This document shows positions 1-25,459 of a stretch of DNA of 60,062 bases, one piece after another. Source of the DNA: a virus (lineage: Duplodnaviria; Caudoviricetes); the IMG/VR virus record IMGVR_UViG_3300034420_000030, positions 1-60,062 of that record; one strand, given 5' to 3'. The notes under the pieces were generated by a model. It saw only the letters and a program-made list of their open reading frames with translations, did not search any database and was not told the DNA's origin. Numbering within the stretch: position 1 is the stretch's first letter; every line of letters starts with the position of its first letter. The position numbers were made by a program, and so were the translations under genes.

Positions 1-127
1 CGTGTAGCCGGCATTATTTGGCCGCCACCATGCACGATGTTCATTTGACCAGATCAGATAGCTCATTTCTCCCCTCCTGGTGAAAGAGGAGAGGCGAGAC
101 GATAGGATCGCGTTTTCGCATCCCATC
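1..127. repeat. Terminal 127-bp direct repeat (copy 1); circular-assembly overlap
   Basis: Identical to 59936-60062; an ORF reads through the junction. Confidence 0.95.
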
Positions 128-326
128 CGCATGTTGCGCAATAACCGTTCTCATCCAGGGGTTTACTACAATTATTTTGCAATTTGTCCAGAAGAGTGAC
201 TGTGTATCCAGCCACCTCTATAGCGGCGAGCGCGGCGGCCGCGTAAGACTCCGGACAGGGGCAGCCTTCAGCACCTTCCTTTTCGATGGCTTCCGCCATC
301 TTCTCAATCAGTTCGTCACGCGTCAT
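63..326 (-). CDS. Hypothetical phage protein with C-terminal Cys motif
   Basis: ATGA overlaps with both neighbours. Confidence 0.7.
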   Translation of the reverse strand: MTRDELIEKMAEAIEKEGAEGCPCPESYAAAALAAIEVAGYTVTLLDKLQNNCSKPLDENGYCATCGWDAKTRSYRLASPLSPGGEK

Positions 327-760
327 GATGGCGTTCCATTTGTGTCAGGCGAATTTTCCCCGAGCTGCGAAGCCTCATCGCTCGCTGGCGCTCGCTCTTC
401 AAGCTGGCTCAGAGGTGGAGCCGGGGGCGGAAGCCAGTGCGTCGCATTGTGAACTTTCGACCGACAATCATCACCCCCAAATGATGAATCGTCATAGCGC
501 CACCAACGGCCAGACGAAAACCAACATTCAGGCACACGCGCCGGCCCCGCGCTTAATCCAGGCGCTCGACACCATAGATCAACTTTTGTTCCATCCTTCG
601 GCGCGCTTTCGATTGGCCTCCATTCTCTCTCTGAGAGAAGTTGAAGGAGAGCGGCGGAAGATTTTGAAAGAATTACTCGCTGTTCCGGCAACCATTGCTG
701 GGGAGAATGCGCCCAACTATAAAGATCGCGCATCAGCGCCTCTATTTCATCCCTGGTCAT
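323..760 (-). CDS. DUF551-like (Ea22-type) phage protein
   Basis: WRPIESAPKDGT...THWLPPPAPP motif; start moved to MTRDEIEAL. Confidence 0.8.
   Translation of the reverse strand: MTRDEIEALMRDLYSWAHSPQQWLPEQRVILSKSSAALLQLLSEREWRPIESAPKDGTKVDLWCRAPGLSAGPARVPECWFSSGRWWRYDDSSFGGDDCRSKVHNATHWLPPPAPPLSQLEERAPASDEASQLGENSPDTNGTPS
342..407 (-). repeat. Dispersed structured element, full copy
   Basis: CCAGCTTGAAGA-GCGAGCGCCAGCGAGC-GATGAGG-N22-GCCTGACAC. Confidence 0.85.
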
Positions 761-1064
761 TGCTCTTGTCCTTGAGGGCGCGGATGTCTTGGGCGATTTC
801 GCGAGCTTCCGCATTCATGGTTTCAAGACGTCTGAAGTCGTCGGGATAGTTGCGTTGAAAATCTAGGGTGAGGTCCCGAACTCTGTCCTGCGCTACCTTC
901 GCGCACTCCTCTATAGTTTTAAGGCGCACGGCTTGAGCGGCGGCTTCCCATGCGTTCATTTCCTCGACCGCGCAACCTTTCGCTAAGGGCCAATCGACAG
1001 CATGCCCCTTAAACGTGTTGAAGCCTCCATAGGCGATCTCGCCCAGCGTCTTTGTCTCAGCCAT
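747..1064 (-). CDS. Hypothetical phage protein
   Basis: Coupled ORF; EECAKVA...EIAQDIRALK-type C-terminus common in phage accessory genes. Confidence 0.7.
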   Translation of the reverse strand: MAETKTLGEIAYGGFNTFKGHAVDWPLAKGCAVEEMNAWEAAAQAVRLKTIEECAKVAQDRVRDLTLDFQRNYPDDFRRLETMNAEAREIAQDIRALKDKSNDQG

Positions 1065-1323
1065 TGCTCTTGTCCTCAGCGATAGCGCGGATAATAGCAC
1101 GGAAAGCCACATCCATGAATTCATCCGCTCGACAGTTTTCGACGGCAGTCTCAGCAGCGTCTAAGGCCGAAAGCGGCGTCTCGCATTCAGCTAGAGCCAG
1201 AAGCGCGGCGCGCATATATTCGCAGAACTTTTGTTTGTGCCCCTGGCTAACTCGTGTTTCCCAAATCCGCGAGCCGTGCTGCTTTTCCCATGCAGCTTTC
1301 GCCATTGCTTCGATTATCGTCAT
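1057..1323 (-). CDS. Hypothetical phage protein
   Basis: Coupled ORF in leftward operon. Confidence 0.7.
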   Translation of the reverse strand: MTIIEAMAKAAWEKQHGSRIWETRVSQGHKQKFCEYMRAALLALAECETPLSALDAAETAVENCRADEFMDVAFRAIIRAIAEDKSNG

Positions 1324-1748
1324 TAGCCGATATCCATCTTTTCAATGAACGCGCGGGCGTCAGTTAATAGTTGCGGAAGCTCATTTTTGGTTGGCTTGTA
1401 TGCAGGATCGAAGTGGAGGAGAAAGCCAGACATGATCTCCACTGCCTCATTGAGATGGGAGCGGAGGATTTCTGTGTCAGGCAAGCTCCGCAATTGTTGC
1501 GAGGCATCATCGGCGAGTTCTTCACTCGCCTCTTCAAGCTGGCGCTGAGATAGCGGCATTTCTTCGCCATTCTGAGTGCGTTTCATCCCGCAGAAAGTGC
1601 ATTCCCAATACCAATATGCAGTTGCCACAGCACGCTTGACAACCCAGGCATGGTCTCCGGGTTCGCAGACCTTAGCTTGAAGAGGCGTAGCCGATGATGA
1701 GAACGCCCCGGTATCGGCGTCTGCCTGACATTTATCTGTGGTCGTCAT
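1323..1748 (-). CDS. Mosaic hypothetical protein containing two repeat elements and a C/H Zn-finger-like insert
   Basis: ORF reads through elements at 1674-1731 and 1474-1542. Confidence 0.65.
   Translation of the reverse strand: MTTTDKCQADADTGAFSSSATPLQAKVCEPGDHAWVVKRAVATAYWYWECTFCGMKRTQNGEEMPLSQRQLEEASEELADDASQQLRSLPDTEILRSHLNEAVEIMSGFLLHFDPAYKPTKNELPQLLTDARAFIEKMDIG
1474..1542 (-). repeat. Dispersed structured element, full copy
   Basis: CCAGCTTGAAGA-GGCGAGT(GAAGA)ACTCGCC-GATGATG-N22-GCCTGACAC. Confidence 0.9.
1674..1731 (+). repeat. Dispersed structured element, full copy (antisense to local genes)
   Basis: AGCTTGAAGA-GGC(GTA)GCC-GATGATG-N23-GCCTGACAT. Confidence 0.9.
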
Positions 1749-1765
1749 CTTCAATCTCCATTCCA

Positions 1766-1960
1766 TCAGCGATTATCGTATTCTTCTTCATTTGGATAAG
1801 TGAACCATTCCACTGTGGTCACAGTTGCAATCCAGAAGGTCTTGCGACAAAGATTGCAGGTCGTCTTTCTGTCGTCACCATCTTCCCATGGCAGATCACA
1901 TAGATCTGCTTTTGTCTTGTAGTTATCATGTTTACAATGTGGACAAATGACGCCGCTCAT
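1766..1960 (-). CDS. Small zinc-ribbon protein
   Basis: CPHC...CNLC. Confidence 0.75.
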   Translation of the reverse strand: MSGVICPHCKHDNYKTKADLCDLPWEDGDDRKTTCNLCRKTFWIATVTTVEWFTYPNEEEYDNR

Positions 1961-2235
1961 TTATATTTCCTTCCGAAGATATACAGAATTCCTATTCCCC
2001 ATATACATAGCACAAGACCGACGATAATAGGAATAATGAAAGGTTGTAATCCATAAAAAATCTTGTGTGACGCAAGTGTATCAAGTGCAATTCTAACTGG
2101 ACCTGCGACGACGATCTGGTAAACTACAAGCCAGATGACACCTTTTCTGTAGCTCATGCGATCTTCATTGCGGATACGCTTCAAATCGGCGTCCGTATAT
2201 CTGGCGACTAGAAACGATGGTAGCTGATTGCTCAT
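1957..2235 (-). CDS. Small 2-TM membrane protein (AT-rich)
   Basis: Two hydrophobic segments; overlaps both neighbours. Confidence 0.7.
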   Translation of the reverse strand: MSNQLPSFLVARYTDADLKRIRNEDRMSYRKGVIWLVVYQIVVAGPVRIALDTLASHKIFYGLQPFIIPIIVGLVLCIWGIGILYIFGRKYK

Positions 2236-2597
2236 CCGCGTCTCACAACCTTGCCGGACATTTTCTGCTTCATCGGCCCGTCTCTGTTGGTTTGAAAGCC
2301 AGCCGATCTGATCTTGGCTTTTGGCTTTTGGCTTTTCTTCGTCTCGCGGCGGATGGCGCGGCCTTTCTTGGCGGCTTTGGCGTCCATGGTCGTTTTAATC
2401 GTATGGCATAAGCTGCAAAGAGGTCTGCAGTTGGCCAGAGAGTTATCTGACTTGATCTCGCAGCGCATTATGTGGTCATAGACTTCGATCGGTCGCGTAC
2501 AAATCAGCTTGACCTCGATCAGCCCGGCACAAATGCCACCGCGAAGCTCGTAGGCCTTTTTCTTGGTCGCATGGCTGAATTCAAGACGATCGCTCAT
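2232..2597 (-). CDS. HNH endonuclease
   Basis: C...DHI...N..ANCRPLCSLCH..KT motif. Confidence 0.85.
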   Translation of the reverse strand: MSDRLEFSHATKKKAYELRGGICAGLIEVKLICTRPIEVYDHIMRCEIKSDNSLANCRPLCSLCHTIKTTMDAKAAKKGRAIRRETKKSQKPKAKIRSAGFQTNRDGPMKQKMSGKVVRRG

Positions 2598-2845
2598 TCT
2601 GCGTTCTCCGTCTTAGAGGAGCGGATGGCAACAAGGACTCTGCGGAAAACTGTATCAACAATATCAACTGGCCGCGCCGCATTAAGATCAAGTTCGGAAA
2701 GCGCATCCATTCCGGCCTGAAGTTGCATGCCGGATAGATTGGTCCGAAGAATTCGATCTATCTCCGCTTCTTTCGCTTCTTTTAAAGCGGTGTCGCCCTC
2801 TACAATTCCAGGAGGACAAATCGGAAGGTTCTTAAAATCAATCAT
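2594..2845 (-). CDS. Hypothetical protein
   Basis: Coupled ORF; ends in boundary repeat IRSSKTE. Confidence 0.65.
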   Translation of the reverse strand: MIDFKNLPICPPGIVEGDTALKEAKEAEIDRILRTNLSGMQLQAGMDALSELDLNAARPVDIVDTVFRRVLVAIRSSKTENAE

Positions 2846-3087
2846 TACTCGCTCTCCGTCTTAGAGGAGCGGATGTTCGAAAATTCTTCGTCAGTAGTAA
2901 AGCATTCTGTTGGAAGCCCGGCGCAGTGACATCGATTTCGATGCAAGCAATAGCCTTTGTCATTATGATAGCCTTCGTGATGCCCACATGGGCACATCTT
3001 TGGCTTGCCGTTCGGATAGCTCCAACTCGGGACGTATGGAGCATCGTCTGACGGCCCTTTGTGGCTGTCGCTAATCGGCCCTGGCAT
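2845..3087 (-). CDS. Cys/His-rich hypothetical protein
   Basis: CPCGHHEGYH...C...CHC; ends in IRSSKTE repeat. Confidence 0.6.
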   Translation of the reverse strand: MPGPISDSHKGPSDDAPYVPSWSYPNGKPKMCPCGHHEGYHNDKGYCLHRNRCHCAGLPTECFTTDEEFSNIRSSKTESE

Positions 3088-3337
3088 TGTCTCTCTCCGG
3101 CATCTCATTGTGCTCGCGGGCGTCGCGTCGTTTTGCGCGACGATCTTTCGCAAAAGCATCAAGTGCGCGCTTGAATGCGGCGGCTGGTGTTAATCCCTCC
3201 GCATACATTGGATGCCAGTCGTCGGAATAGACCGTGAACTCGCCATCTTCATAGCCATATTCACCTTGGATCACGTCTTCATCCAATGCTCTGATCCACT
3301 CGCGAAACTTCTCGTCATCGTCGAAATGCTTAGCCAT
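3071..3337 (-). CDS. Hypothetical acidic protein
   Basis: ORF with RBS in operon. Confidence 0.65.
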   Translation of the reverse strand: MAKHFDDDEKFREWIRALDEDVIQGEYGYEDGEFTVYSDDWHPMYAEGLTPAAAFKRALDAFAKDRRAKRRDAREHNEMPERDNARAD

Positions 3338-3340
3338 TAT

Positions 3341-3619
3341 CTATCCCTCAGCTCCTTGCTTTGATATGGTGGTGTCTGACGGCTCGACAGATTCAACCAA
3401 TGCGGCGAGTACCATCATTGCGGCCATGCCGTTATATTGGTCTGTGTACATCTTGGCGCTGCGTATCGCTGCTTGCTCGATCGTGATATGATGCTCTTCG
3501 GCAAGAGCTTTCAGGATGCTGATACCCTGCGCCATGCGCTCTTTGAACTTGTCGCCCAATAGAACCCTAGCGGTATCGCGAGCGTCGTACATCTTGGCGG
3601 CCATCTGGATTTTGTTCAT
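3341..3619 (-). CDS. Hypothetical protein
   Basis: ATGA-coupled ORF (MNKIQ...). Confidence 0.65.
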   Translation of the reverse strand: MNKIQMAAKMYDARDTARVLLGDKFKERMAQGISILKALAEEHHITIEQAAIRSAKMYTDQYNGMAAMMVLAALVESVEPSDTTISKQGAEG

Positions 3620-3951
3620 CCGATCCTCGAAGTTTGCCGCAGATTGCTCTGTTCGGTACGCCACGCATCGATGATAGCCATGGCCTTGCCTTTCTGATGT
3701 GAGTGCCAGGCATCCATTCTGACGGCCTCAGCTTCGTCCTGGCAGGCCTTCCAGTAGTCATGGTCAGCTTCAGCCTTGGCCCGGCGAAGATCGACCGTGC
3801 CGCCTTCCTGCTCTATCAGGAGCTCTGCCAGAACTTTTTTGCGGCGATGTTCGGCCAAGATACGATCGCCTCGTGCCTTCGCGGCAGCATCCGCTGCATC
3901 GTTCAGATAGTCGAAAGCGGCCTGAACCATCTTTTCGGTGATCAATGTCAT
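3616..3951 (-). CDS. Helical recombination-associated protein
   Basis: Directly after Bet; AKAEA...Y...IDAWRTEQSN pattern. Confidence 0.6.
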   Translation of the reverse strand: MTLITEKMVQAAFDYLNDAADAAAKARGDRILAEHRRKKVLAELLIEQEGGTVDLRRAKAEADHDYWKACQDEAEAVRMDAWHSHQKGKAMAIIDAWRTEQSNLRQTSRIG

Positions 3952-4940
3952 GCCATTACCTTCAAACTTTCCGGTATGTCTGATGGATCGCTGGCGGCCG
4001 GCGCTTGCGCCTTCTCCAGTTCCTTTTTAAGCTCCAAACAATCGCCCGGATGCGTGCCCCAGAACATTCTGAGCGCAACGCGATTACGTTCCTCGAAGGC
4101 GCGGACGGTGTTCGGCTCGCCATTGCAGCCGAGAAGGAACTCCATCGTTTTGTCGAAGAACTGGCCGGCGGGAACAGAGGCTAGAGGCTTTCCATCCATC
4201 CAATCGACGATGATCATATTCGGGCCGCCGATCTTGGTGATACGGTCGTCCTGTTCGGCGATGTCGGCAATCTCTGAGGCCGTCAGATCGAGTGTGTGGA
4301 GGCGATCAACTTCCTCCTGCACATAGACCCCGGCGAAGTCGTTGGGCCAACCCTTGCGATGCGCTTGCGCTTCGGCGCACTTGGCGATCTGGTTGCGTGG
4401 TCCCTTTGACCATCCCGTTTTCTTTGGATCTATGATGAGCTTGGTGCTCTCGCTGACGATCTTGCGGCGCTTCGGCTTGCCATCCTTGTGGAATTGCCCT
4501 GGAATGTCTTCCCACGTCACGCCATCCTCTACCAAAGGGACGTATTCATCCCAAAATGCTTCGCCGACAACCGGATGCCAGGCGCCGTGCGACCACTTGT
4601 AAAGCGTAACGATGGCGCGGATGATGCCGTGAGGATTTGTCGGCGACTTTAGGTCCGGGTCGGTTTCGTATTGCGTCGGCTGATCTGCTGGCCGGTAATC
4701 GCCAGAGCGAGCCGAGATCGCACGGTAGCCGTCGATGGCGGTGACAACCGTTAGATTGCGGGCTTCATCGTCCTTGCCCTTGCCGAACACGAACGCATAA
4801 ATTTGGCGGCGCAAGGGATCAAGGCCGACCGCTTTGGCGATGTGAATGAATTGGTCGAACTCGTGCGGAAGGCAATCCTTCGCTACGGTCTTGCGAATTA
4901 GCGCCAAATCGGATTTGTTGAAAACAGCGATTTCGTTCAT
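3948..4940 (-). CDS. bet: Red-beta/RecT-family ssDNA annealing recombinase
   Basis: GLDPLRRQIY, IDGYRAIS..SG.Y, AKCAEAQAHRKGWP motifs. Confidence 0.9.
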   Translation of the reverse strand: MNEIAVFNKSDLALIRKTVAKDCLPHEFDQFIHIAKAVGLDPLRRQIYAFVFGKGKDDEARNLTVVTAIDGYRAISARSGDYRPADQPTQYETDPDLKSPTNPHGIIRAIVTLYKWSHGAWHPVVGEAFWDEYVPLVEDGVTWEDIPGQFHKDGKPKRRKIVSESTKLIIDPKKTGWSKGPRNQIAKCAEAQAHRKGWPNDFAGVYVQEEVDRLHTLDLTASEIADIAEQDDRITKIGGPNMIIVDWMDGKPLASVPAGQFFDKTMEFLLGCNGEPNTVRAFEERNRVALRMFWGTHPGDCLELKKELEKAQAPAASDPSDIPESLKVMA

Positions 4941-4942
4941 GG

Positions 4943-5452
4943 TCAGTCCCAACGTAGGGTGAGAGAAAATCCAGGATTATTCAGACATGCGCCGGGGACC
5001 GTCTCACGATCCTTCAGCGCAGCCAGGAGAGCCCGCTTGTTCAGGCGCGGCGCAGATGCCTCCCAGAACTTCGACGGCACTGCAGCCTCATCTGTGACCC
5101 GTACAGCGGGGGGCGATGGGCGTAGCGACAGCGTAACGGCGGGGTGCTCGACATTCTTCCGGCCGGCCTGCTCCATCGCAGTCGCGAGAGCAGTGCGGTA
5201 ATGCCCGATGCGGCCCTCGATGCGATCCTTGCGGGCGACGAGCAAATCGATCATCTCATTGAGGCCATTCATGGCGGCGAGATCATCGATGAGCATCCTA
5301 ACGGCGGCGTCGATTGCCTCGTTGAGGTCGGTTTCCGCCTCGATCATATCCGCAGCGCATTGCTCATCATTTCCGATGATGTCAGCCAGATTGGCGCGAA
5401 GCGCTTTTGCCGCCTCCGTCTCACGGTGAAGCTGGTGACTGACTTCGCTCAT
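4943..5452 (-). CDS. Siphovirus Gp157-family protein
   Basis: LSLRPSPPAVRVTDEAAVP..F...P.LNK..L..ALK....VPGA.L motif. Confidence 0.85.
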   Translation of the reverse strand: MSEVSHQLHRETEAAKALRANLADIIGNDEQCAADMIEAETDLNEAIDAAVRMLIDDLAAMNGLNEMIDLLVARKDRIEGRIGHYRTALATAMEQAGRKNVEHPAVTLSLRPSPPAVRVTDEAAVPSKFWEASAPRLNKRALLAALKDRETVPGACLNNPGFSLTLRWD

Positions 5453-5652
5453 GGCATCATATCCCGGACCCAATCAAGCGACGGGTCATCATTCCAGCTT
5501 GCCTCGATGAATAGATCGGCCATGCTTGGCTCAGCGTCATTTTGAGGCTTGACAGCTTTCGCGGCTTTCGTGCCGTGCTTGGCCTTGGTGTGCTGCCAGC
5601 GGGCGTTATCGTCGGAGAACGTTCTTTCGCAGTGCTCGCATTTGACGCTCAT
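5449..5652 (-). CDS. C2H2 zinc-finger protein
   Basis: CEHCERTF......QH...KH. Confidence 0.8.
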   Translation of the reverse strand: MSVKCEHCERTFSDDNARWQHTKAKHGTKAAKAVKPQNDAEPSMADLFIEASWNDDPSLDWVRDMMP

Positions 5653-5843
5653 CTCGTCCCCCTCCTTGCAACCTTATGGACGGCGTTGCAGAGCTTGCGG
5701 CGCATCTGGGCGATTTCAAAGGCTCGCCAGCCGCTTTGCGCCCTGAATTGAGTGCGCTCCGCCTCCAAGCGCCGGATGATCTCATCTTGGGAGGCGATGA
5801 TCTCCTTGAGGCAAACGATTTCCCGGTCGCGGTCGTCACTCAT
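5649..5843 (-). CDS. Hypothetical coiled-coil protein
   Basis: Coupled ORF. Confidence 0.6.
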   Translation of the reverse strand: MSDDRDREIVCLKEIIASQDEIIRRLEAERTQFRAQSGWRAFEIAQMRRKLCNAVHKVARRGTR

Positions 5844-6036
5844 GGCTGGCCTCCATCTGTCGCTCGAATTCCTGATAGCTCATCAAGCCAGCAACATATT
5901 TAAACCGTAAATCAAGCTTAGCATTCCAAGTTCTAGCCCAGCGGATCTTGAGGTGATCGGCGAAGTTGAGCTTGTCGTCGAGCAACCCAAGATCATACGG
6001 CTTGTAGAAGCCTTGGCGGAAGTTGGCGTCAGTCAT
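5836..6036 (-). CDS. Hypothetical protein
   Basis: Coupled ORF (MTDANF...). Confidence 0.55.
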   Translation of the reverse strand: MTDANFRQGFYKPYDLGLLDDKLNFADHLKIRWARTWNAKLDLRFKYVAGLMSYQEFERQMEASHE

Positions 6037-6373
6037 GGTTTTCCCCTCTCGCCTTAGCGAGGGCATCTCCCGCTGCAATCGTTTCAGGTTCTTTTGCCGG
6101 GTCCCAGAAACCACAGTCTCCACTGCTAACTAGGTCCATGTAGCGTTTCATGAGCTTGTCAAGCGCCTCATAAAGCTCTGGACATGCGGCTATGAGATTG
6201 GCATTGGCTTCTGATTTGCCGTCCATCTTCCCGCCACAGACGGTGGCAACATCTGTTTCGGCATTGCCTGACATCTTCGCAACCGTGCCAGTGATCCACC
6301 AGACATCAGCGCCTTCGTTCGGGTCGGATCTTGTCGCGGTCCAGGGTCCAGGTGTGAACTTTTCCTTGCTCAT
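6029..6373 (-). CDS. Conserved phage protein (TPGPW family)
   Basis: FTPGPW...EANANLIAACPEL...ALAKARGE. Confidence 0.85.
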   Translation of the reverse strand: MSKEKFTPGPWTATRSDPNEGADVWWITGTVAKMSGNAETDVATVCGGKMDGKSEANANLIAACPELYEALDKLMKRYMDLVSSGDCGFWDPAKEPETIAAGDALAKARGENHD

Positions 6374-6377
6374 AGCG

Positions 6378-6605
6378 TCACCGGCCTTTCATATCGTCTA
6401 TGACGATGCGGACAGCATTGAGATATATTTCAACATCGCTGCGCTCATCCTGAAAACCTGCACAGCCTGAAAGGCGGCGCTCGTTCTCGGCTTCATAGGC
6501 AAGCTTCAGCAGGCGAGAAACATATTCCATGGAACCTTCCCGCTCGGCTTCGTAAAGAATGCCCTGGCGCATTAATTCTGCTTCATTCGTCATTTGCGAT
6601 GTCAT
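6378..6605 (-). CDS. Hypothetical protein
   Basis: Coupled ORF. Confidence 0.55.
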   Translation of the reverse strand: MTSQMTNEAELMRQGILYEAEREGSMEYVSRLLKLAYEAENERRLSGCAGFQDERSDVEIYLNAVRIVIDDMKGR

Positions 6606-6793
6606 AGCGGTTTCTCCCCTTGTGCAAGTATCTTGTTTTCAAAGCTTACCTGCCATTTGATTTTCTTGCCATCCGGATGTATCCTAATGAGATATTGTGC
6701 GAATACGAGGTCTTTCTTCAGCGGCGAGATCTTCGCCATGATGATGGCTGCATTTAGGGCGTGCTGAACATCTTGCGGCAATGCGGACATCAA
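6602..6793 (-). CDS. Hypothetical protein
   Basis: GGAGG RBS, coupled ORF. Confidence 0.55.
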   Translation of the reverse strand: MMSALPQDVQHALNAAIIMAKISPLKKDLVFAQYLIRIHPDGKKIKWQVSFENKILAQGEKPL

Positions 6794-6811
6794 TATTTCC
6801 TCCGTATCTTG

Positions 6812-7285
6812 TTATTCTATAGGCAGCGTGCCTTTGCGAGAGATTACGATTCGGCCTTTGATGACTTTTCGGTTCAGTGGAGGAGTAATCATCACGACAT
6901 TGGCGGTCGGGACATGGCCCCCAGTATCCCGACCGCCGTCCCCCGCTACTCTGCCGGAACGATAAACCGTTAGCCGACTAAGGGTGTTCTGTAAGTCCCT
7001 GACTTCGCCCATCAGCTCGCGAGCACAGTTGACCGCGCCGCGCAGCATAAAGAAAGCCGGCGACCACATCATAATGGCGAGAATGGTCCCAACCGCCATA
7101 TTATCGTCGAGAAAGCCGCGAATAATCAGATGGAAACCGACGAGAACGAGCGTCACGCATCCGGCGATCCAGACCCAGCTTTCCTTGAGGATGTCGTTGA
7201 CTTTCTGGGCATAGTCGCGGTCCCCCCGATAATCTGGGGTCGGGGAGACCGCTTTGCCTCCCGGTGGCAAGGGTTTGTTGGTCAT
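6812..7285 (-). CDS. 2-TM membrane protein
   Basis: AAAGGA RBS before MTNKPL; two TM segments. Confidence 0.65.
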   Translation of the reverse strand: MTNKPLPPGGKAVSPTPDYRGDRDYAQKVNDILKESWVWIAGCVTLVLVGFHLIIRGFLDDNMAVGTILAIMMWSPAFFMLRGAVNCARELMGEVRDLQNTLSRLTVYRSGRVAGDGGRDTGGHVPTANVVMITPPLNRKVIKGRIVISRKGTLPIE

Positions 7286-7346
7286 GATGGCGTTCCTTTT
7301 TCTGATCCTTTGAAGAAGCTCGCCATAGACGCGCCTCAACGAAAGA

Positions 7347-7487
7347 TCACTCTCCGCCGCTTCCCCCGCATGGTCCGCCGCCATTATGCCAGATCTCGCA
7401 GTTTGAAGACCGTCCGCCTCCACATGCTGCCAGACCAACGCAGACAGTGAGCAACGCCACCGTCAAAAATCCGCCAATAAGTTTCAT
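7347..7487 (-). CDS. 46-aa lipoprotein (not in ORF track)
   Basis: MKLIGGFLTVALLTVCVGLAA-CGGGRSSNCEIWHNGGGPCGGSGGE; LAAC lipobox. Confidence 0.7.
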   Translation of the reverse strand: MKLIGGFLTVALLTVCVGLAACGGGRSSNCEIWHNGGGPCGGSGGE

Positions 7488-7506
7488 TGATATTCCCTCT
7501 AGTAAG

Positions 7507-7755
7507 TTAGTTTCCGTATCCGTCTCCGTTTCCGTATCCGTTTCCGTATCCGTCTCCGTCTCCGTATCCGTCTCCGTATCCGTCTCCGTTTCCGTCTCCG
7601 TATCCGTATCCGTATCCGTCTCCGTCTCCGTATCCGTCTCCGTCTCCGTTTCCGTATCCGTATCCGTATCCGTCTCCGTCTCCGTCTCCGTATCCGTATC
7701 CGTCTCCGTATCCGTATCCGTCTCCGTCTCCGTCCAGCGTTATTATTTGATCCAT
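7507..7755 (-). CDS. Gly-(Asp/Tyr/Asn) dipeptide-repeat protein
   Basis: Tandem GGA-NAC hexamers; start overlaps upstream gene. Confidence 0.7.
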   Translation of the reverse strand: MDQIITLDGDGDGYGYGDGYGYGDGDGDGYGYGYGNGDGDGYGDGDGYGYGYGDGNGDGYGDGYGDGDGYGNGYGNGDGYGN

Positions 7756-8012
7756 GCTTCTTCCTTACAAGGAATGATGTTAATCATGGCTCTCCGGTTC
7801 AGTTTGACCAATGCCGGATCGTCGAGTTGTGTGTTTGGCAATGGACCTTCATTCGCCAATTGGTTGAGGCCGCGTTGCGTGCCCCAACGGCGTACAATGC
7901 GCGCCCCGGCAATAATGACGAGGTCATCGACTGTTACGGTCTCGCCTACCCAGACATGGCCGCGATCGGCGATGACCAGGCACAAGCCGTGATTTTGATT
8001 TTTGTCCGACAT
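7743..8012 (-). CDS. Conserved phage protein usually paired with GDGYG-repeat ORFs (DUF6948-like)
   Basis: VIADRGHVWVG...ARIVRRWGT..GL.QLA.EGP. Confidence 0.75.
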   Translation of the reverse strand: MSDKNQNHGLCLVIADRGHVWVGETVTVDDLVIIAGARIVRRWGTQRGLNQLANEGPLPNTQLDDPALVKLNRRAMINIIPCKEEAWIK

Positions 8013-8123
8013 AGATGTTCCTTGCTTTGGTTTCAGATCTTGCCGGGACGACGAGCCTGAGGCGTTGAGAAGATTGAATTGAAGGGTTGAAGATATGCCC
8101 GTCGCCCCGCGAAAATCTGCAAC

Positions 8124-8360
8124 TTATTTGATGAACTCATCAGTTTCACCGCATAGGTATGAAAACATGCTAGACAATTCATTAGTTTCAGGCGTTTTTA
8201 GACGCAGACCTTCTAGTGTCAACAATAAGCGATGCAACTCATACCAGTTATTGAACTGGATTGTTGACGTGATTTTTCCGTCTCGTTTGCTTTGTTTAAA
8301 TGATATTATTTTCATGATGCTTTGCCCGTGGCCCCGCGAAAATCTGACGGTCAAGCTCAA
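8124..8360 (-). CDS. Hypothetical protein (AT-rich)
   Basis: Coupled ORF; start uncertain. Confidence 0.45.
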   Translation of the reverse strand: MSLTVRFSRGHGQSIMKIISFKQSKRDGKITSTIQFNNWYELHRLLLTLEGLRLKTPETNELSSMFSYLCGETDEFIK

Positions 8361-8578
8361 AGTTCTTTATCGCCTTGGAGATAGCGGCGCCCTTTTTCCG
8401 TCAATCGCATCCGATCAACATCCACTTCGATAAAGCCGCGCTCAATGGCATAGCTGATCTCAGTTTTGCCATGCTCTGGATCGAAACTATCGAAAGTAAA
8501 CCACCGCTCTTCTGGAGGCGGGTTCTCATAGGCAAGATCGGCCAGAAGCTCTTTAGTTTTTTGCGCTACGCTTCGCAT
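8357..8578 (-). CDS. Small winged-helix-like protein; first gene of leftward operon
   Basis: ERGFIEV....MRLTEKGRRYL wing motif; GAGG RBS. Confidence 0.7.
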   Translation of the reverse strand: MRSVAQKTKELLADLAYENPPPEERWFTFDSFDPEHGKTEISYAIERGFIEVDVDRMRLTEKGRRYLQGDKEL

Positions 8579-8718
8579 GTCTGCCTCTAAAAAGTGCCCT
8601 GGCTATTGGTTTATAGCCGCCAGCCAGGGCGAGTTTCCCACTTAGCCGTCAGACGCTTGCCGATGGGGATGCGCCTCGTAGGGGAGGAGTGAGGCAGCTA
8701 GCTTGCGTCTGACAAGAA

Positions 8719-8855
8719 CGGTTCTATCCGCATTTCGCGGAAGCCGCAAGCACTATTTTACGCTTTTTGCGGAAATTCAGACAAGATCCCTACATGTTGC
8801 GGATTTGCCACCGCTAGGCTATTGACGCCTTGCGCATTTCGCGTATGATGCGCGC
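8719..8855. promoter_or_regulatory. Divergent promoters with three 15-bp operators
   Basis: Rightward TTGACG-N-TATGAT; leftward TTGCGG-N17-TAGAAC; operators TCCGCATTTCGCGGA (8727), TACGCTTTTTGCGGA (8759), TGCGCATTTCGCGTA (8831). Confidence 0.8.
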
Positions 8856-9062
8856 ATGTCAAGCATTCGAGATCTCATCACAGAGCTAGGCGGCGTTTCA
8901 GAAGTCGCCAGACGTATCAATTCAAAGCCATCAACCGTGCATTCATGGATCGTCAGGGACAGCATACCGATCAATAATTGGTACAAACTTGAACGGTTAT
9001 GCGGTGTCGAATGGAACCGATTGAGCGCAATAAGAAAGCAAAGCGCAATCAGCACAAGGTAG
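8856..9062 (+). CDS. Cro-like HTH regulator, leaderless
   Basis: LITELGGVSEVARRI...STVHSW...IP; ATG 6 nt after the -10 box. Confidence 0.85.
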   Translation: MSSIRDLITELGGVSEVARRINSKPSTVHSWIVRDSIPINNWYKLERLCGVEWNRLSAIRKQSAISTR

Positions 9063-9069
9063 CAGCAGA

Positions 9070-9291
9070 ATGAGAAAATCCATACAAGAACTCGCTGAAG
9101 ATCTGGCGAAGGCCAAGACCCAAATGGCGCAAATGGGTATGATGAACACGCCAACTGATCTTTTCCTCAAGATCAAAAGCGATGCGCGTTATCAGCTTGC
9201 TGTAAATGGCTACATGAAAGCATCGCAGGATTACAGCCAAGCCATCAAAAATCTAAGCTCGGAAGAGCTGCTGAAGCTGTCCGTCGCCTAA
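9070..9291 (+). CDS. Hypothetical protein
   Basis: ORF following cro. Confidence 0.6.
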   Translation: MRKSIQELAEDLAKAKTQMAQMGMMNTPTDLFLKIKSDARYQLAVNGYMKASQDYSQAIKNLSSEELLKLSVA

Positions 9292-9372
9292 ATCTCCCTG
9301 TCGGAAGGGTTAGTAAGAGTAGCGTGCGTTGCGGCGTTGCGTACAGCGTCCCCGCTTGCATGGATGGATAAA

Positions 9373-9957
9373 ATGGGCTGGACTGAGGAAAGAATTGAGA
9401 GACTGAAAACCCTCTGGGCACGCGGCGAGAGCGCTACGTTCATCGCCGAGACATTTGGCGACGTAACGCGCAATGGGGTTATCGGCAAGGTGCATCGCTT
9501 AGGCTTGCCATACCGCAAGACGCAGGTTCGCACACGCTGCAGTCAAGTCGCATGGGCAAGGCCACTTGAACTCGTTCGCTCCGCCAAATGGAAGAGCGAT
9601 CGTGCAAAAGCCACGGCCGACATTAAGCCAAAGCAAGCGAATAAGCCGGGTCCAGCGCCAACGCCACAAGTCTCGCGTTCCACAGAAACGCCAGCCATAG
9701 AGAAGCTTAAAGCCATGGCTTCGATCATGCGCGAGACGGATAAGCCAACAGGACGCCTCGGTTTGCTTGACTTGGAACCACATCACTGCCGGTGGCCGAT
9801 CGGCATGCCTGAGGACGAAGATTTTCATTTCTGCGGCGAGCGAAAGATGCGTGGCATCTCCTATTGCGAAGCGCATGCGCTGATCGCTTTCCAGCCGGCG
9901 CCGCGCCGTAAGCCTAGAACTGATCCTATTCCAATGCCGAAAGGAATAGCGGCGTGA
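9373..9957 (+). CDS. gcrA: GcrA cell-cycle regulator homolog
   Basis: WTEERIERLKTLW..G.SA..IA...G.VTRNGVIGKVHRLGL and LLDL...CRWPIG.P....FHFCG......YC..H. Confidence 0.93.
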   Translation: MGWTEERIERLKTLWARGESATFIAETFGDVTRNGVIGKVHRLGLPYRKTQVRTRCSQVAWARPLELVRSAKWKSDRAKATADIKPKQANKPGPAPTPQVSRSTETPAIEKLKAMASIMRETDKPTGRLGLLDLEPHHCRWPIGMPEDEDFHFCGERKMRGISYCEAHALIAFQPAPRRKPRTDPIPMPKGIAA

Positions 9958-10238
9958 AACACGCAGCAAACTTCAAAGATATCACCGGCCAGACATTCGG
10001 ATGGCTTAAGGTTATGGCGTTTGCTGGCGTGACCAACCGAGGCTTCGCGCTTTGGAAATGTAGGTGCGGATGCGGCCGAGAGATCACTGCCAATGGTAAG
10101 CATTTGCGGCGCGGGGTAGTAAAAAGCTGCGGCTGCAAAAGGGCTCTGAAATACCAAAAGCTCGTTTCACGTCGAATGCATGGCCGCCAATCTTACTCAT
10201 ATGGATCAATCGAGGATTTGGACGACATCCCATGGTAA
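9954..10238 (+). CDS. N-terminal Zn-binding half of HNH/AP2-type endonuclease
   Basis: DITGQTFGWLKV...WKCRCGCG...LRRG..KSCGC; no nuclease domain. Confidence 0.75.
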   Translation: MKHAANFKDITGQTFGWLKVMAFAGVTNRGFALWKCRCGCGREITANGKHLRRGVVKSCGCKRALKYQKLVSRRMHGRQSYSYGSIEDLDDIPW

Positions 10239-10420
10239 AACAACTCCGTCTTTCCAATCCCTCCTCTTATTACGAAACTTGGCGCGATCAGCCTGTTAAA
10301 CTGATCCAAAGGTTACAGGGAGATGATGGCGAATATGTGGATGTGCAGCTAATCGGCGACAAGGACAAGGGCTTACGCCTAAGAGTAAGCGCTTCGGCGA
10401 TAGGGGAGCAGAAATCATGA
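10232..10420 (+). CDS. Hypothetical protein
   Basis: Coupled ORF. Confidence 0.55.
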   Translation: MVKQLRLSNPSSYYETWRDQPVKLIQRLQGDDGEYVDVQLIGDKDKGLRLRVSASAIGEQKS

Positions 10421-10530
10421 CGCGAAAACGTGGCCGTCCCTATGTCGGTATGACCGGTCAGCGCTTTGGCCGTTGGCTGGTAGTGTCAAAAGCTGCAAGC
10501 GCCAATTACAGAACAGCAGCAGGAGCCTGA
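10417..10530 (+). pseudogene. Truncated HNH N-terminal fragment ending in GCCTGACAC
   Basis: MTRKRGRPYVGMTGQRFGRWLVVSK...; stop is the TGA of GCCTGACAC (10525-10533). Confidence 0.6.
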
Positions 10531-10536
10531 CACAAA

Positions 10537-10773
10537 ATGCGACCAGAAGAACTTGCAAAGAAATGCGTAGACGCAATAAATTTCTGGAAAGACAATCCAG
10601 ACCAAGCCATCATTACGATTGTCCTGCAGAAAGGCTGGAAGGCGCCTCCGAAATTCCCACGCCGAACCCTGCTTTGTGAGAATTCAAAAACCGAGCGTGT
10701 CTATAGCGTGTCGGCCATGAATGTTCTTGCGTGGTTGGCGGCGAACGGCTTTGTGAAAGTAGCCAAAAAATGA
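10537..10773 (+). CDS. Hypothetical protein
   Basis: Starts right after GCCTGACAC; AGGAG upstream. Confidence 0.6.
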   Translation: MRPEELAKKCVDAINFWKDNPDQAIITIVLQKGWKAPPKFPRRTLLCENSKTERVYSVSAMNVLAWLAANGFVKVAKK

Positions 10774-10952
10774 TCCCGATCAAACTCAAAGCTTCTGATT
10801 TAAAGCTCTCTCAACGTGGCGACGGTAAAACCGTCTTAAGCATCGATCATAAAGCCAAGATGGCGAAAAAGCCGGTGTGCTCGCGCTTCGTTAACGCCAA
10901 GAAAATCCGCTACGGCAAGAGAGCTGCTAGCTCTGTCAATAGGCCGGTGTAA
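10770..10952 (+). CDS. Small basic protein
   Basis: ATGA-coupled (MIPIKLK...). Confidence 0.55.
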   Translation: MIPIKLKASDLKLSQRGDGKTVLSIDHKAKMAKKPVCSRFVNAKKIRYGKRAASSVNRPV

Positions 10953-11422
10953 TGCTTTATCTCGAAGTCGCTTGTAACGATCCAGATAATGGTATTTTCG
11001 CTGGTCGGGCATTCGGGCTCCAGATCGGAGAAGCCGAGTTCGAATCGACTGATTGGCGAAACGGCCATGCATTTGCCGAGCTGGATGGAGCCGTTCGACT
11101 GTCTGGCAAGATTTGGAAAATCTGCGGATCGAAAGAGTGGTTCGGTAATTGGTGCTGGAATCGATACGAGCTTTATGATCGCCAGAAGACAACGCGCTGG
11201 TATCTCGTCGATTTCGTGACGTGGTTGCGTAGTCGAAGGATTTTCAACTGCACGACAGCGCCGAGTGAATTCTTCGATTGGTTCAATGGCGATAAAAGTC
11301 TTGCGCCGAAAAATATCCATCGCCTTGTCTGCGACTTGGAGACGGAAAGAGGCTTGTCAAGCCTAAACTCGACAAGCCTTTGTGGCTTTCCTGCCATATC
11401 ATCGGGGCTCGAAGCCAAGTAA
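10952..11422 (+). CDS. Trp-rich hypothetical protein
   Basis: TAATG-coupled ORF. Confidence 0.65.
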   Translation: MLYLEVACNDPDNGIFAGRAFGLQIGEAEFESTDWRNGHAFAELDGAVRLSGKIWKICGSKEWFGNWCWNRYELYDRQKTTRWYLVDFVTWLRSRRIFNCTTAPSEFFDWFNGDKSLAPKNIHRLVCDLETERGLSSLNSTSLCGFPAISSGLEAK

Positions 11423-11456
11423 GATGCGCCTATCAACAACGAAAGGACTGTACATT

Positions 11457-12871: not shown

Positions 12872-12873
12872 CC

Positions 12874-13086: not shown

Positions 13087-13097
13087 CGGAGGAAGCC

Positions 13098-13325
13098 ATG
13101 AGTAAACCGGATATTCTTGATGCCCTTGACGATCTGCATATCCAGGCGACGAGGGAAAAATCACATCACTATGTCGGCAGCGTATGTCAAATGGCAGCGG
13201 CGGAAATCATCAACCTTCGCGCCGATAATGCAAAAATGAGGTTTGATCTTAGAAACCTTAAACGCCAGCTTGAAGAGCCGCATAGCGGCGATAATGAGGT
13301 AACTCCGAAGACAGAGGCGGCCTGA
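13098..13325 (+). CDS. Hypothetical protein whose C-terminus and stop derive from a repeat element
   Basis: GGAGG RBS; ends RQLEEPHSGDNEVTPKTEAA. Confidence 0.7.
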   Translation: MSKPDILDALDDLHIQATREKSHHYVGSVCQMAAAEIINLRADNAKMRFDLRNLKRQLEEPHSGDNEVTPKTEAA

Positions 13326-13328
13326 CAC
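13265..13328 (+). repeat. Dispersed structured element, full copy
   Basis: CCAGCTTGAAGA-GCCGC(ATA)GCGGC-GATAATG-N23-GCCTGACAC. Confidence 0.9.
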
Positions 13329-13421
13329 ATGTCACGATTTACGACAAACCAATGGATCTTACTTGGCGTCATCGGCGCTGTAGCGCTGGCGCTTCTGCTG
13401 ATCAATATGAAGGTGCTCTGA
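13329..13421 (+). CDS. 30-aa single-TM peptide (not in ORF track)
   Basis: MSRFTTNQWILLGVIGAVALALLLINMKVL; TGATG-coupled to next gene. Confidence 0.55.
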   Translation: MSRFTTNQWILLGVIGAVALALLLINMKVL

Positions 13422-15485: not shown

Positions 15486-15634
15486 CCCCCGCCGAGATCC
15501 AAGAACGGATAGATGACATCAAGCAGCAAGTCTATGATGGTCTGTTGCGTCCACCGGAAGGCCGTCGCAAGATCGTCGAGCTAAAGTGGATATTGCGGAG
15601 CTTGCTTGAAGAGCAGCGAAGCCGCGATGAGTGA
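15482..15634 (+). CDS. Small hypothetical protein ending in an element half-site
   Basis: MTPAEIQERI...LLEEQRSRDE. Confidence 0.55.
   Translation: MTPAEIQERIDDIKQQVYDGLLRPPEGRRKIVELKWILRSLLEEQRSRDE
15604..15630 (+). repeat. Dispersed element, 5' half only
   Basis: GCTTGAAGA-GCAGC(GAA)GCCGC-GATGA; supplies the ATG of the next gene. Confidence 0.75.
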
Positions 15635-15827
15635 TCCGGTTGAAATTCGAGATCTCACGCATGCTATGGAGATCATGACCAAGCTTGATGAGAAAATCAT
15701 TGAGCTTCGTAATGAGCTTAAGGTGTTTACGAAGTTTCGGCGTGATATTCAGTTTACAATTCGTCAAATGCGTCGAATTGAAGAGCGAAGCGATGATGAG
15801 GCGGCTCCGAAGTCTGGGTCTGCCTGA
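15627..15827 (+). CDS. Small coiled-coil protein bracketed by elements
   Basis: MSDPVEIRDL...IEERSDDEAAPKSGSA. Confidence 0.65.
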   Translation: MSDPVEIRDLTHAMEIMTKLDEKIIELRNELKVFTKFRRDIQFTIRQMRRIEERSDDEAAPKSGSA

Positions 15828-15830
15828 CAC
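15778..15830 (+). repeat. Dispersed structured element, full copy
   Basis: TTGAAGA-GC(GAA)GC-GATGATG-N23-GCCTGACAC. Confidence 0.9.
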
Positions 15831-15847
15831 ACAAAAAGGAAAATCAC

Positions 15848-16117
15848 ATGACCGAAGTCCATCCAAACCATGTTCATCCGCGCAGCAAGCGTACGTCGAA
15901 GGCGGAGCCATATCGAGCGTTATTCAAGCCATTGGTGCCAGTTAAGGCCGGAAAAAGCCAGCGCCGCAAAGCCGAAACCTATCGTGGCGCACGTCGCAAG
16001 GCAGAGCGAGGACCTCGCAAAAGCCTCCAGCTCTTGGCTATACGGACAGTTTTGGGAATTTCCCGTCAAGAACATGATCGCCGACGTGAAGAGGCGCGGA
16101 AATTGCTTTTGGCCTGA
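15848..16117 (+). CDS. Very basic small protein; stop lies within GCCTGACAC (16112-16120)
   Basis: AAAGGA RBS; R/K-rich. Confidence 0.65.
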   Translation: MTEVHPNHVHPRSKRTSKAEPYRALFKPLVPVKAGKSQRRKAETYRGARRKAERGPRKSLQLLAIRTVLGISRQEHDRRREEARKLLLA

Positions 16118-16174
16118 CACAAAAATAGACGGCCGGTGTTCGTTGCTATGTTCCCGGCCGCCTAATGATCAGAA

Positions 16175-22710: not shown

Positions 22711-23203
22711 AGCAAAAGCACGCGAGATCGCGCACCGATATCTGACGATGCCAAACGAAAACCATCATTGCGATGAGCCTATTACGCCATATGGCCATAT
22801 CTTTGTCTGCAATGCCCTTACTGCCGCAATCGCCGCTGCTCTTTCCCTAGCAGCAAAAGAGGAAAGAGAAGCTTGCGCTAAGATCGTCGATAATTTTTCA
22901 GCGAACCGCCAAATGCTCACCGGCGTCATCGTTGCCGTCATCCGCGCAAGAGGCCCCAGCGCAAGCGGAGAGGACTCATCGCCTTCGGCTCTTCAATCTA
23001 GTTCAGAGCTTGAAGCTGAAAAAGCTCATTCAGAACGCCTAGGATTGGCCCTGTCGATGATTGCCTTAGGCTGTGAGCACCCAAAAGTTGTTGCGATGAA
23101 GGCATTGAAATGGTCGGAAATCTCGGAGAGCCAGATTGAAGAGCAATGTGCGGAAAACGCACATTGCGATGATGCGACCGCTCCACAAACAAAGCCAGCC
23201 TGA
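22697..23203 (+). CDS. Mosaic hypothetical protein reading through two inverted elements
   Basis: EREACAKIVD...IRARG domain, then element-derived sequence and passenger. Confidence 0.65.
   Translation: MMDFEAKAREIAHRYLTMPNENHHCDEPITPYGHIFVCNALTAAIAAALSLAAKEEREACAKIVDNFSANRQMLTGVIVAVIRARGPSASGEDSSPSALQSSSELEAEKAHSERLGLALSMIALGCEHPKVVAMKALKWSEISESQIEEQCAENAHCDDATAPQTKPA
22951..23001 (-). repeat. Dispersed element (antisense), outer GACAC end lost
   Basis: CTAGATTGAAGA-GCC(GAA)GGC-GATGAGT...GCCT. Confidence 0.75.
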
Positions 23204-23206
23204 CAC
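23131..23206 (+). repeat. Dispersed structured element, full copy
   Basis: CCAGATTGAAGA-GCAATGTGCG(GAAAA)CGCACATTGC-GATGATG-N23-GCCTGACAC. Confidence 0.9.
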
Positions 23207-23218
23207 CAAGGAAACCCC

Positions 23219-24966: not shown

Positions 24967-25241
24967 GCACCGATCAAGAGCTTTCGTTGGTGGATTGCCG
25001 CAATCGCGGTCTAGGCGATCTAGCTACGGTTATTGAGGCAATCTGGGGGCCGCGCTGCAACATCCATGACGGACATTGCTTCGTGTGCAATGCATGGCTT
25101 ATGTTTGACACATTGAGCCGGCTTACCGATACGAGCACGCTGGATTTTTATGATGAGAACCCCGAAAAGCTCAAAGCCAGATTGAAGAGCAAGTCAAAGA
25201 CTTGCGATGATGAGACGGCGTGGAAACAGGAATTGGCCTGA
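24963..25241 (+). CDS. Hypothetical protein ending in a repeat element
   Basis: WGPRC.....C.VC.AW motif. Confidence 0.65.
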   Translation: MSTDQELSLVDCRNRGLGDLATVIEAIWGPRCNIHDGHCFVCNAWLMFDTLSRLTDTSTLDFYDENPEKLKARLKSKSKTCDDETAWKQELA

Positions 25242-25244
25242 CAC
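25177..25244 (+). repeat. Dispersed structured element, full copy
   Basis: CCAGATTGAAGA-GCAAGTC(AAA)GACTTGC-GATGATG-N23-GCCTGACAC. Confidence 0.9.
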
Positions 25245-25246
25245 AA

Positions 25247-25459
25247 ATGAGTAACCGCCAAGGCAAGATGCTGAAGGAAGCAGACTGCTACGTTCAATGT
25301 CCATACTGTCGCAAGGTTTTGAAAAACCGCAGATGGCTTGGGACGTGGCATTTGTGTTTGTTGCCCGAAGAGCGGGAAGCTATTGACAATTATCGCCGTA
25401 TGGCTGAAGCACAAAGGCGAGCTTCTTGTCCACAATTGCTCCGGAAAAACCGCCTATGA
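25247..25459 (+). CDS. Small zinc-finger protein
   Basis: CPYC...H.C; starts just after the element. Confidence 0.55.
   Translation: MSNRQGKMLKEADCYVQCPYCRKVLKNRRWLGTWHLCLLPEEREAIDNYRRMAEAQRRASCPQLLRKNRL

Follow-up and report, generated by a model that had tools for sequence, protein, structure and literature searches.

In the excerpts of two papers (PMC2839356, PMC4122927) the promoter-early stem-loops (PeSLs) of T4-like phages are described as short composite repeats with a variable stem-loop, which lie at gene boundaries between the stop of one gene and the start of the next, occupy the variable non-structural part of the genome and coincide with the breakpoints of insertions, deletions and replacements between relatives. 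These properties are shared by a repeat identified in the complete IMG/VR virus record IMGVR_UViG_3300034420_000030 (Duplodnaviria; Caudoviricetes), a stretch of 60,062 bp that is referred to below as the window. An inverted pair at 1469-1735, contained within the open reading frame (ORF) 1323-1766(-), consists of two copies of this element, a lineage-specific phage repeat of approximately 70 nt per copy that is built from three short boxes and a hairpin. The repeat forms a family with hairpin covariation and independent assortment of its sub-modules, and alternative passengers are present at three loci.

The anatomy of the element differs from that of the PeSLs, which in the same excerpts are intergenic, hold a consensus sigma-70 promoter with the stem-loop acting as a terminator, and are described in direct orientation giving mini-circles. 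The present element lies inside ORFs, is translated in both orientations and is typically arranged as outward-facing inverted pairs. A promoter scan of window positions 1-17000 gave 10 promoter-like sites compared to 12.1 expected, none of them at an element, and the distance between boxes 1 and 2 varied from 8 to 26 nt, which does not fit a sigma-70 promoter. A terminator scan revealed no intrinsic terminator at any copy and no T-run after the stem-loop. By analogy the element appears to resemble the PeSLs in effect and not in anatomy, and it may extend PeSL-like exchange from intergenic to intragenic junctions, outside the T4-like phages; if the boxes are ordinary regulatory sites, the PeSL principle would still be extended in this way.

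The SAS and ESAS repeats of Cluster K mycobacteriophages are, in the excerpts of PMC3203893, conserved asymmetric repeats that lie by translation starts and are confined to the non-structural genome half. An imperfect inverted repeat whose spacer varies is present in roughly half of the SAS, no function was assigned there, and these features are likewise shared with the element. The SAS itself is GGGATAGGAGCCC, with a Shine-Dalgarno-like core, and the same excerpts (PMC3203893) do not report SAS or ESAS as inverted pairs bracketing coding modules. In the ESAS the arms are described as conserved and the spacer varies, whereas the arms of the present element vary and covary.

An initial sequence-only reading of the locus had described the unit as resembling a miniature inverted-repeat transposable element (MITE). 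The concept of a mobile insertion cassette comprises a passenger between terminal inverted repeats without a transposase. As in such cassettes, and in the MITEs covered by the excerpts of a review (PMC10969869), terminal inverted repeats flank a transposase-less passenger and the ends are of the TG...CA type, the present unit having three collinear inverted boxes and the ends TGTCAGGC...GCCTGACA. The MITE assignment was nevertheless not supported, as the units have no target-site duplication, no related insertion sequence and no transposase (69 ORFs scanned with Pfam, 66 with PHROGs), their internal sequences are unrelated, solo copies are common and no members were found in bacterial reference genomes. 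The gene-strand flanks of the unit read ...ACAGATAAA / unit / CAGAAATCC... without a direct repeat abutting the ends, and none was found at locus L013 either.

Rickettsia palindromic elements are, in the excerpts of the same review, also repeats with a palindrome, located in-frame within ORFs, to which they contribute peptide segments, but each is one self-contained insert of approximately 150 bp that is homologous along its whole length (PMC10969869). Here two separate copies of approximately 70 nt bracket unrelated coding DNA and only the ends are homologous. Integron attC sites have RYYYAAC/GTTRRRY cores, are served by the IntI integrase and are arranged in a one-orientation cassette array next to attI. 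With attC the element shares imperfect inverted boxes around a variable centre, which can be folded as a single strand and are tied to exchangeable cassettes. The unit ends are however TGTCAGGC/GCCTGACA and not RYYYAAC...GTTRRRY, no Phage_integrase match was obtained in the window with Pfam, the copies lie in both orientations and the 'loop' is coding sequence. The inverted border repeats of a Gin/Hin-type invertible segment or shufflon are present as well, but a site-specific recombinase was not found in the 60-kb record.

Anatomy of the element and of the pair at 1469-1735

Each copy has the order box 1 (CCAGATTGAAGAG), variable hairpin, box 2 (CGATGATG), a spacer of 23 or 24 nt, and box 3 (GCCTGACA(CAAA)), and the family consensus reads (G)CCAG(A/C)TTGAAGAG, variable hairpin, CGATGATG, 23 or 24 nt, GCCTGACA(CAAAAT). 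Between boxes 1 and 2 lie 6-24 nt that form the hairpin, whose closing pair consists of exactly the last G of box 1 and the C preceding box 2. A perfect stem was present in 23 of the 31 distinct copies, and the stem pairs over all 31 comprised 142 Watson-Crick, 14 G-A, 1 G-T and 3 A-C pairs. For the outer four stem pairs 82.8% were paired compared to 54.8% in shuffles (0/500 shuffles reached this value), and the stem covariation score was 0.519 compared to 0.122 in shuffles (0/500) and at most 0.126 in slid controls. Fourteen copies had a GNA triloop and 8 a T/C-rich tetraloop (CTTC, TCTT, ACTT, CCTT). Of the spacers between boxes 2 and 3, 19 were 24 nt and 12 were 23 nt long, where the search pattern allowed 16-28 nt.

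The G-A mismatches are found on the element's own strand, antisense copies included, and are without a C-T mirror. GNA triloops are especially stable in DNA and more typical of DNA hairpins. Comparison of the E-values showed that the antisense copy outscored its sense partner in 5 of 12 pairs. Because G-T pairs are near-absent, the G-A mismatches lack a C-T mirror, triloops occur and the spacing is fixed, we infer a signal at the DNA level, read from the element's own strand, whose fixed geometry would be reached after extrusion of the hairpin.

Family members outside the window were retrieved using box patterns. In metagenome contigs 23 of 72 box-pattern loci were members, membership being set by profile score (E < 1e-8) and by eye, while a second pattern gave 109 loci in IMG/VR with one member (L135). 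The only match of the first scan of viral contigs (L001) had no hairpin and no flanking conservation, and was regarded as chance-like. A search of 185,579 prokaryotic reference genomes, one per species, gave 28 pattern matches, none of which was a member, indicating that the element belongs to an uncultured phage group and not to bacterial chromosomes; a partial profile match in these genomes (L098, E 1.2e-4) contained no palindrome. Early genes of the window have counterparts of 30-77% amino-acid identity on several carrier contigs. The columns conserved independently of the retrieval pattern were CCAGA and C, preceding boxes 1 and 2 respectively, and a G upstream and CACAAA downstream of box 3. 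No Rfam family matched the elements. A SNORD48 match at 1696-1752(-) reached 23.6 bits where the threshold is 36 (E 0.25) and was treated as chance, and C/D-box, kink-turn and hammerhead-like readings of the boxes were rejected by eye as essential positions or partner stems were missing.

Within the pair itself three collinear inverted matches were found, at 1527-1540/1674-1687 (14/14), 1505-1514/1690-1699 (10/10) and 1475-1490/1715-1730 (13/16), and the family profile places one copy on each side of the passenger (Table 1), confirming the inverted pair proposed in the sequence-only reading. The 14-mer occurs five times in the window with up to 2 mismatches compared to 0.74 occurrences expected, and 0/100 shuffles reached five. 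The word TGTCAGGC lies at 1475-1482 and the word GCCTGACA at 1723-1730, giving a unit of 256 bp between these words, so that the ends originally proposed (1474 and 1731, 258 bp) were each one base too far out. The passenger of 131 nt at 1543-1673 does encode VCEPGDHAW...WECTFCG, and the ORF reads through the whole unit, both as previously suggested; the ORF has ATGs at 1766 and 1748.

The host ORF is laid out as leader, passenger, tail and a C-terminal part of 50 aa. The copy at 1672-1735(+) is translated as ..KCQADADTGAFSSSATPLQAK and supplies the N-terminal leader, and the copy at 1469-1546(-) is translated as ..QRQLEEASEELADDASQQLRSLPDT, belongs to the 23-nt spacer class and is read through at box 3. 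The passenger had been called Zn-finger-like, a putative label that is based on a C-x4-H...C-x2-C pattern and on three short strands in a low-confidence model. This model was obtained with AlphaFold2 from a 3-sequence alignment and had a mean pLDDT of 51, which was too low for a fold search. The leader was predicted to be disordered (pLDDT < 30).

Exchange of passengers and relation to genes

Exhaustive and word-based protein searches, which gave 4 matches in all among 1.84 billion representatives, identified only three relatives of the host ORF, P0002, P0003 and P0004. All of them keep the leader and tail of the host ORF. P0002 has the same passenger as the window, with a 42-aa insertion directly after ..PDT, and the locus (locus A) therefore has three unrelated passengers, those of window/P0002, P0003 and P0004. 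Further loci were found using a profile of nine leader-passenger-tail proteins. Locus B (leader MTREELGKEGILCQAS.., tail ..PDTPYSL) has three different centres, in L013, P0008 and P0009, and locus C (leader MSG..GVTGEASS.., tail ..PDNSKFSINEMPERAS) has two, in L014/P0006 and in P0010. An absence of exchanged alleles would have spoken against the cassette proposed in the sequence-only reading, and exchanged passengers were found: the homologues keep both element-encoded flanks around three unrelated passengers, and two more loci behave alike. The comparison of these sequences supports the description of the unit as an exchangeable cassette. Recognised domains among the passengers include Phage_VG64 (E 1.5e-51) and RNA-ligase-like domains.

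The copies themselves are mosaic. Inside the element the leader of P0008 changes over from the type of locus B to that of locus C, and two copies of box 1 delimit an indel that distinguishes L021 from L027. Seven copy pairs with near-identical hairpins had unrelated spacers, seven with near-identical spacers had different hairpins, and no pair shared both. The independent assortment of hairpin and spacer modules indicates that the crossovers fall in the boxes. Homologous DNA was sought in viral contigs with the host ORF, RecT, a 172-aa protein and alignment A1, and in metagenome contigs with alignment A1, and no related locus was obtained in either. A tblastn search of P0001-P0003 against the family loci gave no match, and the breakpoints at locus A are known from the proteins only.

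One frame of each box contains a TGA, and the stop of the upstream ORF lies in box 1 (..PD*), box 2 (..R*) or box 3 (..A*), except in the 23-nt spacer class, where the ORF reads on as ..PDT... All four solo full copies of the window are sense-oriented at gene junctions, with the next start codon 3-19 nt after box 3. A role as a universal stop in all frames was rejected, since only 9 of 30 copies close all three sense frames (30 of the 31 copies were evaluated, the remaining one, at a contig end, being unscored). In the antisense direction 18 of the 30 have no stop in any of the three frames. The start of many genes coincides with an antisense copy or lies immediately upstream of one, for example in MSGKLGVTGEASS..PLQS or M..CQA..SSS..PLQS, and read-through ORFs translate the copies as leader (..CQA..SSS..PLQS) and tail (QIEE..DD..PDT).

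When adjacent opposite-orientation copies less than 1.3 kb apart were counted, 12 pairs had box 3 outward compared to 2 inward (one-sided binomial p = 0.0065). An ORF was open across both copies in 7 of the 12 box-3-outward pairs, while other outward pairs enclose a complete gene, as at L053 225-614, which contains the Phage_VG64 domain given above; the gene between the paired copies at L044 154-717 is RNA-ligase-like. The coding stretch between paired copies ranged from 122 to 1223 nt. In L054 a stretch of approximately 60 nt at about 200-250 (minus), holding a terminator-like G+C-rich hairpin followed by TTT, lies between box 3 and the next start, and L041 is without this insert before the homologous gene (91% identical).

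Explanations for the paired copies

The explanation judged probable, if only moderately so, is that the element is a gene-terminus DNA signal whose conserved boxes serve as crossover points for a double-crossover swap of modules between co-infecting relatives. Each copy would be a DNA-level signal of three short boxes in fixed geometry that marks gene termini, and boxes 1 and 2 would become adjacent once the variable, perfectly paired hairpin is extruded. A sense copy would close a gene through a box TGA, with the next start codon 3-19 nt later, and an antisense copy, open in most frames, would form the first 22 or so codons of a gene, so that many small accessory genes would come to be bracketed by box-3-outward copies. 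As the boxes are common to many loci and to related phages, crossovers would fall inside them, and a double crossover, one in each flanking copy, would replace the enclosed coding module, leaving the same leader and tail around unrelated passengers in relatives. The exchange would proceed by homologous or microhomology recombination, plausibly through the phage RecT pathway, for which the RecT-family protein of the window (Table 1) is the obvious, if putative, candidate. The junctions of phage mosaicism are rarely visible, and here they are explicit as a structured repeat of fixed geometry that flanks many small accessory genes on both sides, is translated both ways and has alternative passengers per locus. 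If the boxes are recombination signals, they would provide a tractable model for swapping sub-gene coding pieces without breaking reading frames, and the combination of hairpin and box could point to an undescribed DNA-binding or DNA-cutting activity.

Several observations weigh against this explanation. Some mosaic breakpoints are located within passengers, away from the elements (L016 compared with L058), and the leaders and tails of P0002-P0010 were assigned as probable element copies from their peptides. Many of the 23 metagenome loci come from few assemblies and are not independent samples, and the invariance of the boxes in the 31 distinct copies is partly built in, the retrieval pattern having demanded the boxes. 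No consensus sigma-70 promoter, terminator or Rfam match was found at the copies that would account for the conservation of the boxes, and the explanation does not account mechanistically for the predominance of box-3-outward pairs. Finally the boxes, at 7-14 nt, are short for efficient homologous recombination, and a dedicated enzyme would explain the crossovers at least equally well.

Such an enzyme, of phage or host origin, might cut and join at the boxes of outward copies acting as single-stranded hairpin-plus-box signals, and the unit would then behave like a mobile insertion cassette or an attC-like site. This is considered unlikely but is the main rival, as it accommodates the TG...CA ends and terminal inverted repeat geometry, the 12 to 2 prevalence of box-3-outward pairs, the fixed geometry with strand-specific G-A mismatches in the hairpin, and crossovers that fall exactly at boxes too short to favour homologous recombination. 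The many window ORFs without known function and the three or four HNH nuclease genes seen in the PHROG scan are in its favour as well. Geometric reasoning adds that after resection of a unit the hairpin strand comes to lie on both 3' tails only if box 3 faces outward in the two copies, and properly oriented Chi sites on a linear fragment have the same geometry. On this basis the outward copies could, with similarly doubtful standing, act as strand-specific signals for recombination in a phage cassette system not described before, dedicated to the delivery of protein modules. The unit would be released or resected as linear DNA, a phage function such as RecT with a partner, one of the unknown early proteins or an HNH nuclease would recognise the extruded hairpin and the boxes, and the captured coding piece would be spliced in-frame between the start-carrying leader and the stop-carrying tail. 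An enzyme-driven cassette is not what would be expected from a unit that lacks a target-site duplication and has ends differing from the attC core GTTRRRY, in a record where integrase and serine or tyrosine recombinase families, like transposases, were not found among the ORFs scanned. No empty site was seen among the protein relatives and no excision joint in the contigs, and solo copies are common (4 of the 7 full window copies). Pairing could otherwise take place in the messenger, between the antisense copy on the 5' side and the sense copy on the 3' side, so that the passenger would be looped out and processing, stability or translation controlled in the manner of the rRNA-flanking stems cut by RNase III. 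A stretch of 281 nt was folded, giving a structure with all three boxes paired and the local hairpins extruded at -115.1 kcal/mol as RNA (z -5.6) and -58.1 kcal/mol as DNA (z -4.5), with 0/200 shuffles as good in each case. The four-way-junction fold suggested in the sequence-only reading is thus possible by both RNA and DNA folding, but its long-range pairing is not maintained beyond the family boxes. The mean likeness of partners was 0.68 (8 opposite-orientation pairs) compared to 0.70 (sd 0.05) for 587 other pairs, and the copies at 1469-1546 and 1672-1735 had a likeness to each other of 0.56; as partners are no more alike than non-partners, the long-range complementarity is just that of the shared family boxes. 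The sense orientation of the four solo full copies at gene junctions is in agreement with a role in RNA, which is nevertheless improbable: partners are no more complementary than any two family members, only one G-U was present among 161 stem positions, the GNA triloops are more DNA-typical, the G-A mismatches would turn into C-U in the mRNA of antisense copies, and cleavage inside the stem would remove the start codon.

A site-specific or homologous inversion between the copies, flipping the passenger, is very improbable, and the suggestion in the sequence-only reading that the cassette is invertible was not borne out. The inverted repeats do contain perfect cores of 14 and 10 nt, but inversion in silico at any of the three boxes gave 2-3 in-frame stops, and no invertase, resolvase or integrase family was found in the 60-kb record with Pfam or PHROGs. 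The contigs assembled from four runs, which cannot show rare forms, contained no strand-changing joint and no inversion or excision joint at 1469-1735; they break at or near elements, as expected for repeats. One low-depth X5 contig joins position 95 to 338, skipping 242 nt with 3 other letters between, and the right edge of this weak join (depth 2, side 36, likeness threshold 80) is the exact outer end of the copy at 338-411. The least probable explanation is that the signal exists at the protein level only, the leader and tail being conserved peptides and the inverted DNA similarity incidental. Although all read-through copies use the same frame (..ASS..PLQS.. and QIEE..DD..PDT), synonymous positions do not vary within the boxes whereas the codons between boxes are free, the box and frame in which the upstream ORF ends differ between copies (PD*, R*, A* or read-through), the length of the hairpin segment is divisible by 3 in only 14 of the 31 copies, and the leader is predicted to be disordered. 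The frame data largely refute this explanation.

Copies in the window and gene content of the phage record

The window contains 7 full and 4 partial copies, all 11 located between 338 and 25248 in the early and replication third, and the profile search gave no significant copy in the structural half. The two weak box 3-only matches were counted because each lies at a stop/start junction. A second cassette is formed by the copies at 22959-23005(-) and 23128-23209(+), which bracket a passenger of 122 nt. The coordinates obtained for all copies and associated genes are given in Table 1.

Table 1. Element copies and associated features of the window
Feature	Position	Strand	Remarks
Element copy, sense to ORF 1323-1766	1469..1546	-	nhmmer E 2.4e-14; 7-bp hairpin GGCGAGT/ACTCGCC
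Element copy, antisense to ORF 1323-1766	1672..1735	+	nhmmer E 4.2e-11; hairpin GGC-GTA-GCC
Passenger between inner (box 1) ends	1547..1671	-	Cys/His-containing peptide common to P0002 only
Host ORF	1323..1766	-	147 aa; 141 aa from ATG 1748 (P0001 form)
Solo sense copy, 3' end of ORF 323-814(-)	338..411	-	E 2e-12; read-through class; next gene starts 326
Solo sense copy	13263..13332	+	ORF 13098-13325 ends at box 3 TGA; ATG follows at 13329
Solo sense copy, GCGAAGC mini-hairpin	15769..15835	+	Upstream ORF stops at box 3 TGA; next gene 15848
Degenerate antisense copy in ORF 22685-23203	22959..23005	-	nhmmer E 3e-5; boxes 1, 2 and hairpin; box 3 not recognisable
Sense copy, 10-bp hairpin	23128..23209	+	ORF ends at box 3 TGA
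Solo sense copy	25175..25248	+	ORF 24963-25241 ends at box 3 TGA; next ATG 25246
Box 3-only remnant at stop/start junction (GCCTGACACAAAATG)	10516..10538	+	E 1.1, weak
Partial copy, box 1 and hairpin	15598..15630	+	E 0.0056
Box 3-only remnant	16109..16125	+	E 0.21, weak; ORF 15848-16117 ends at its TGA
RecT-family single-strand annealing protein	3948..4952	-	Pfam RecT E 1e-19; PHROG 2780 E 1.4e-31

The record has an identical direct terminal repeat of 127 bp (1-127 and 59936-60062), and the genes lie on the minus strand from 1 to approximately 7.4 kb and on the plus strand onward. A homologue of the gene located downstream of the element in L051 was found at 59509-59709(-), and together with the terminal repeat this suggests that the minus-strand early block probably continues across the ends of the record. 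Scans with PHROG and Pfam revealed RecT, a Gp157/Gam-like protein, several HNH endonucleases, a replication initiator, a primase-helicase, terminase, portal and major head proteins, tail proteins and lysis genes, with RecT and the Gp157-like gene forming a pair at 3948-5473. A blastn search of window positions 1-8000 against isolated phages gave no similar DNA, and the best terminase match was 52% identical.

A GcrA-like cell-cycle regulator is encoded at 9337-9957 (+) (Pfam GcrA, E 7.9e-40). GcrA is an alphaproteobacterial protein, and the presence of this gene suggests an alphaproteobacterial host group. The phage group is unrelated to the T4-like phages and probably infects alphaproteobacteria, and the regulator may possibly participate in the takeover of host transcription.

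The minimum of the cumulative GC skew, at approximately 7.5-10.5 kb, coincides with the switch of gene strand, and for this reason the skew cannot separate replication polarity from transcription polarity. A hexanucleotide array at 7513-7734 (TCCGTC/TCCGTA, 37 copies, 89% matches) is located at this minimum, where the minus- and plus-strand gene blocks diverge, and would read (SV)n within the nominal ORF 7447-7992. An origin or iteron-like region is one possible identity of the array, and a coding repeat of simple sequence is another. The Rfam tRNA model matched 93 nt at 26265-26357 (+) with 40 bits (gathering score 29, E 5.2e-5), although ARAGORN reported no tRNA in the window. A second junction repeat, unrelated to the element, is present at 2589-2627 and 2837-2875 (39 nt, 85% alike); it overlaps the ends of two neighbouring minus-strand genes, both of which end in ..SSKTE..E* just before the next start.

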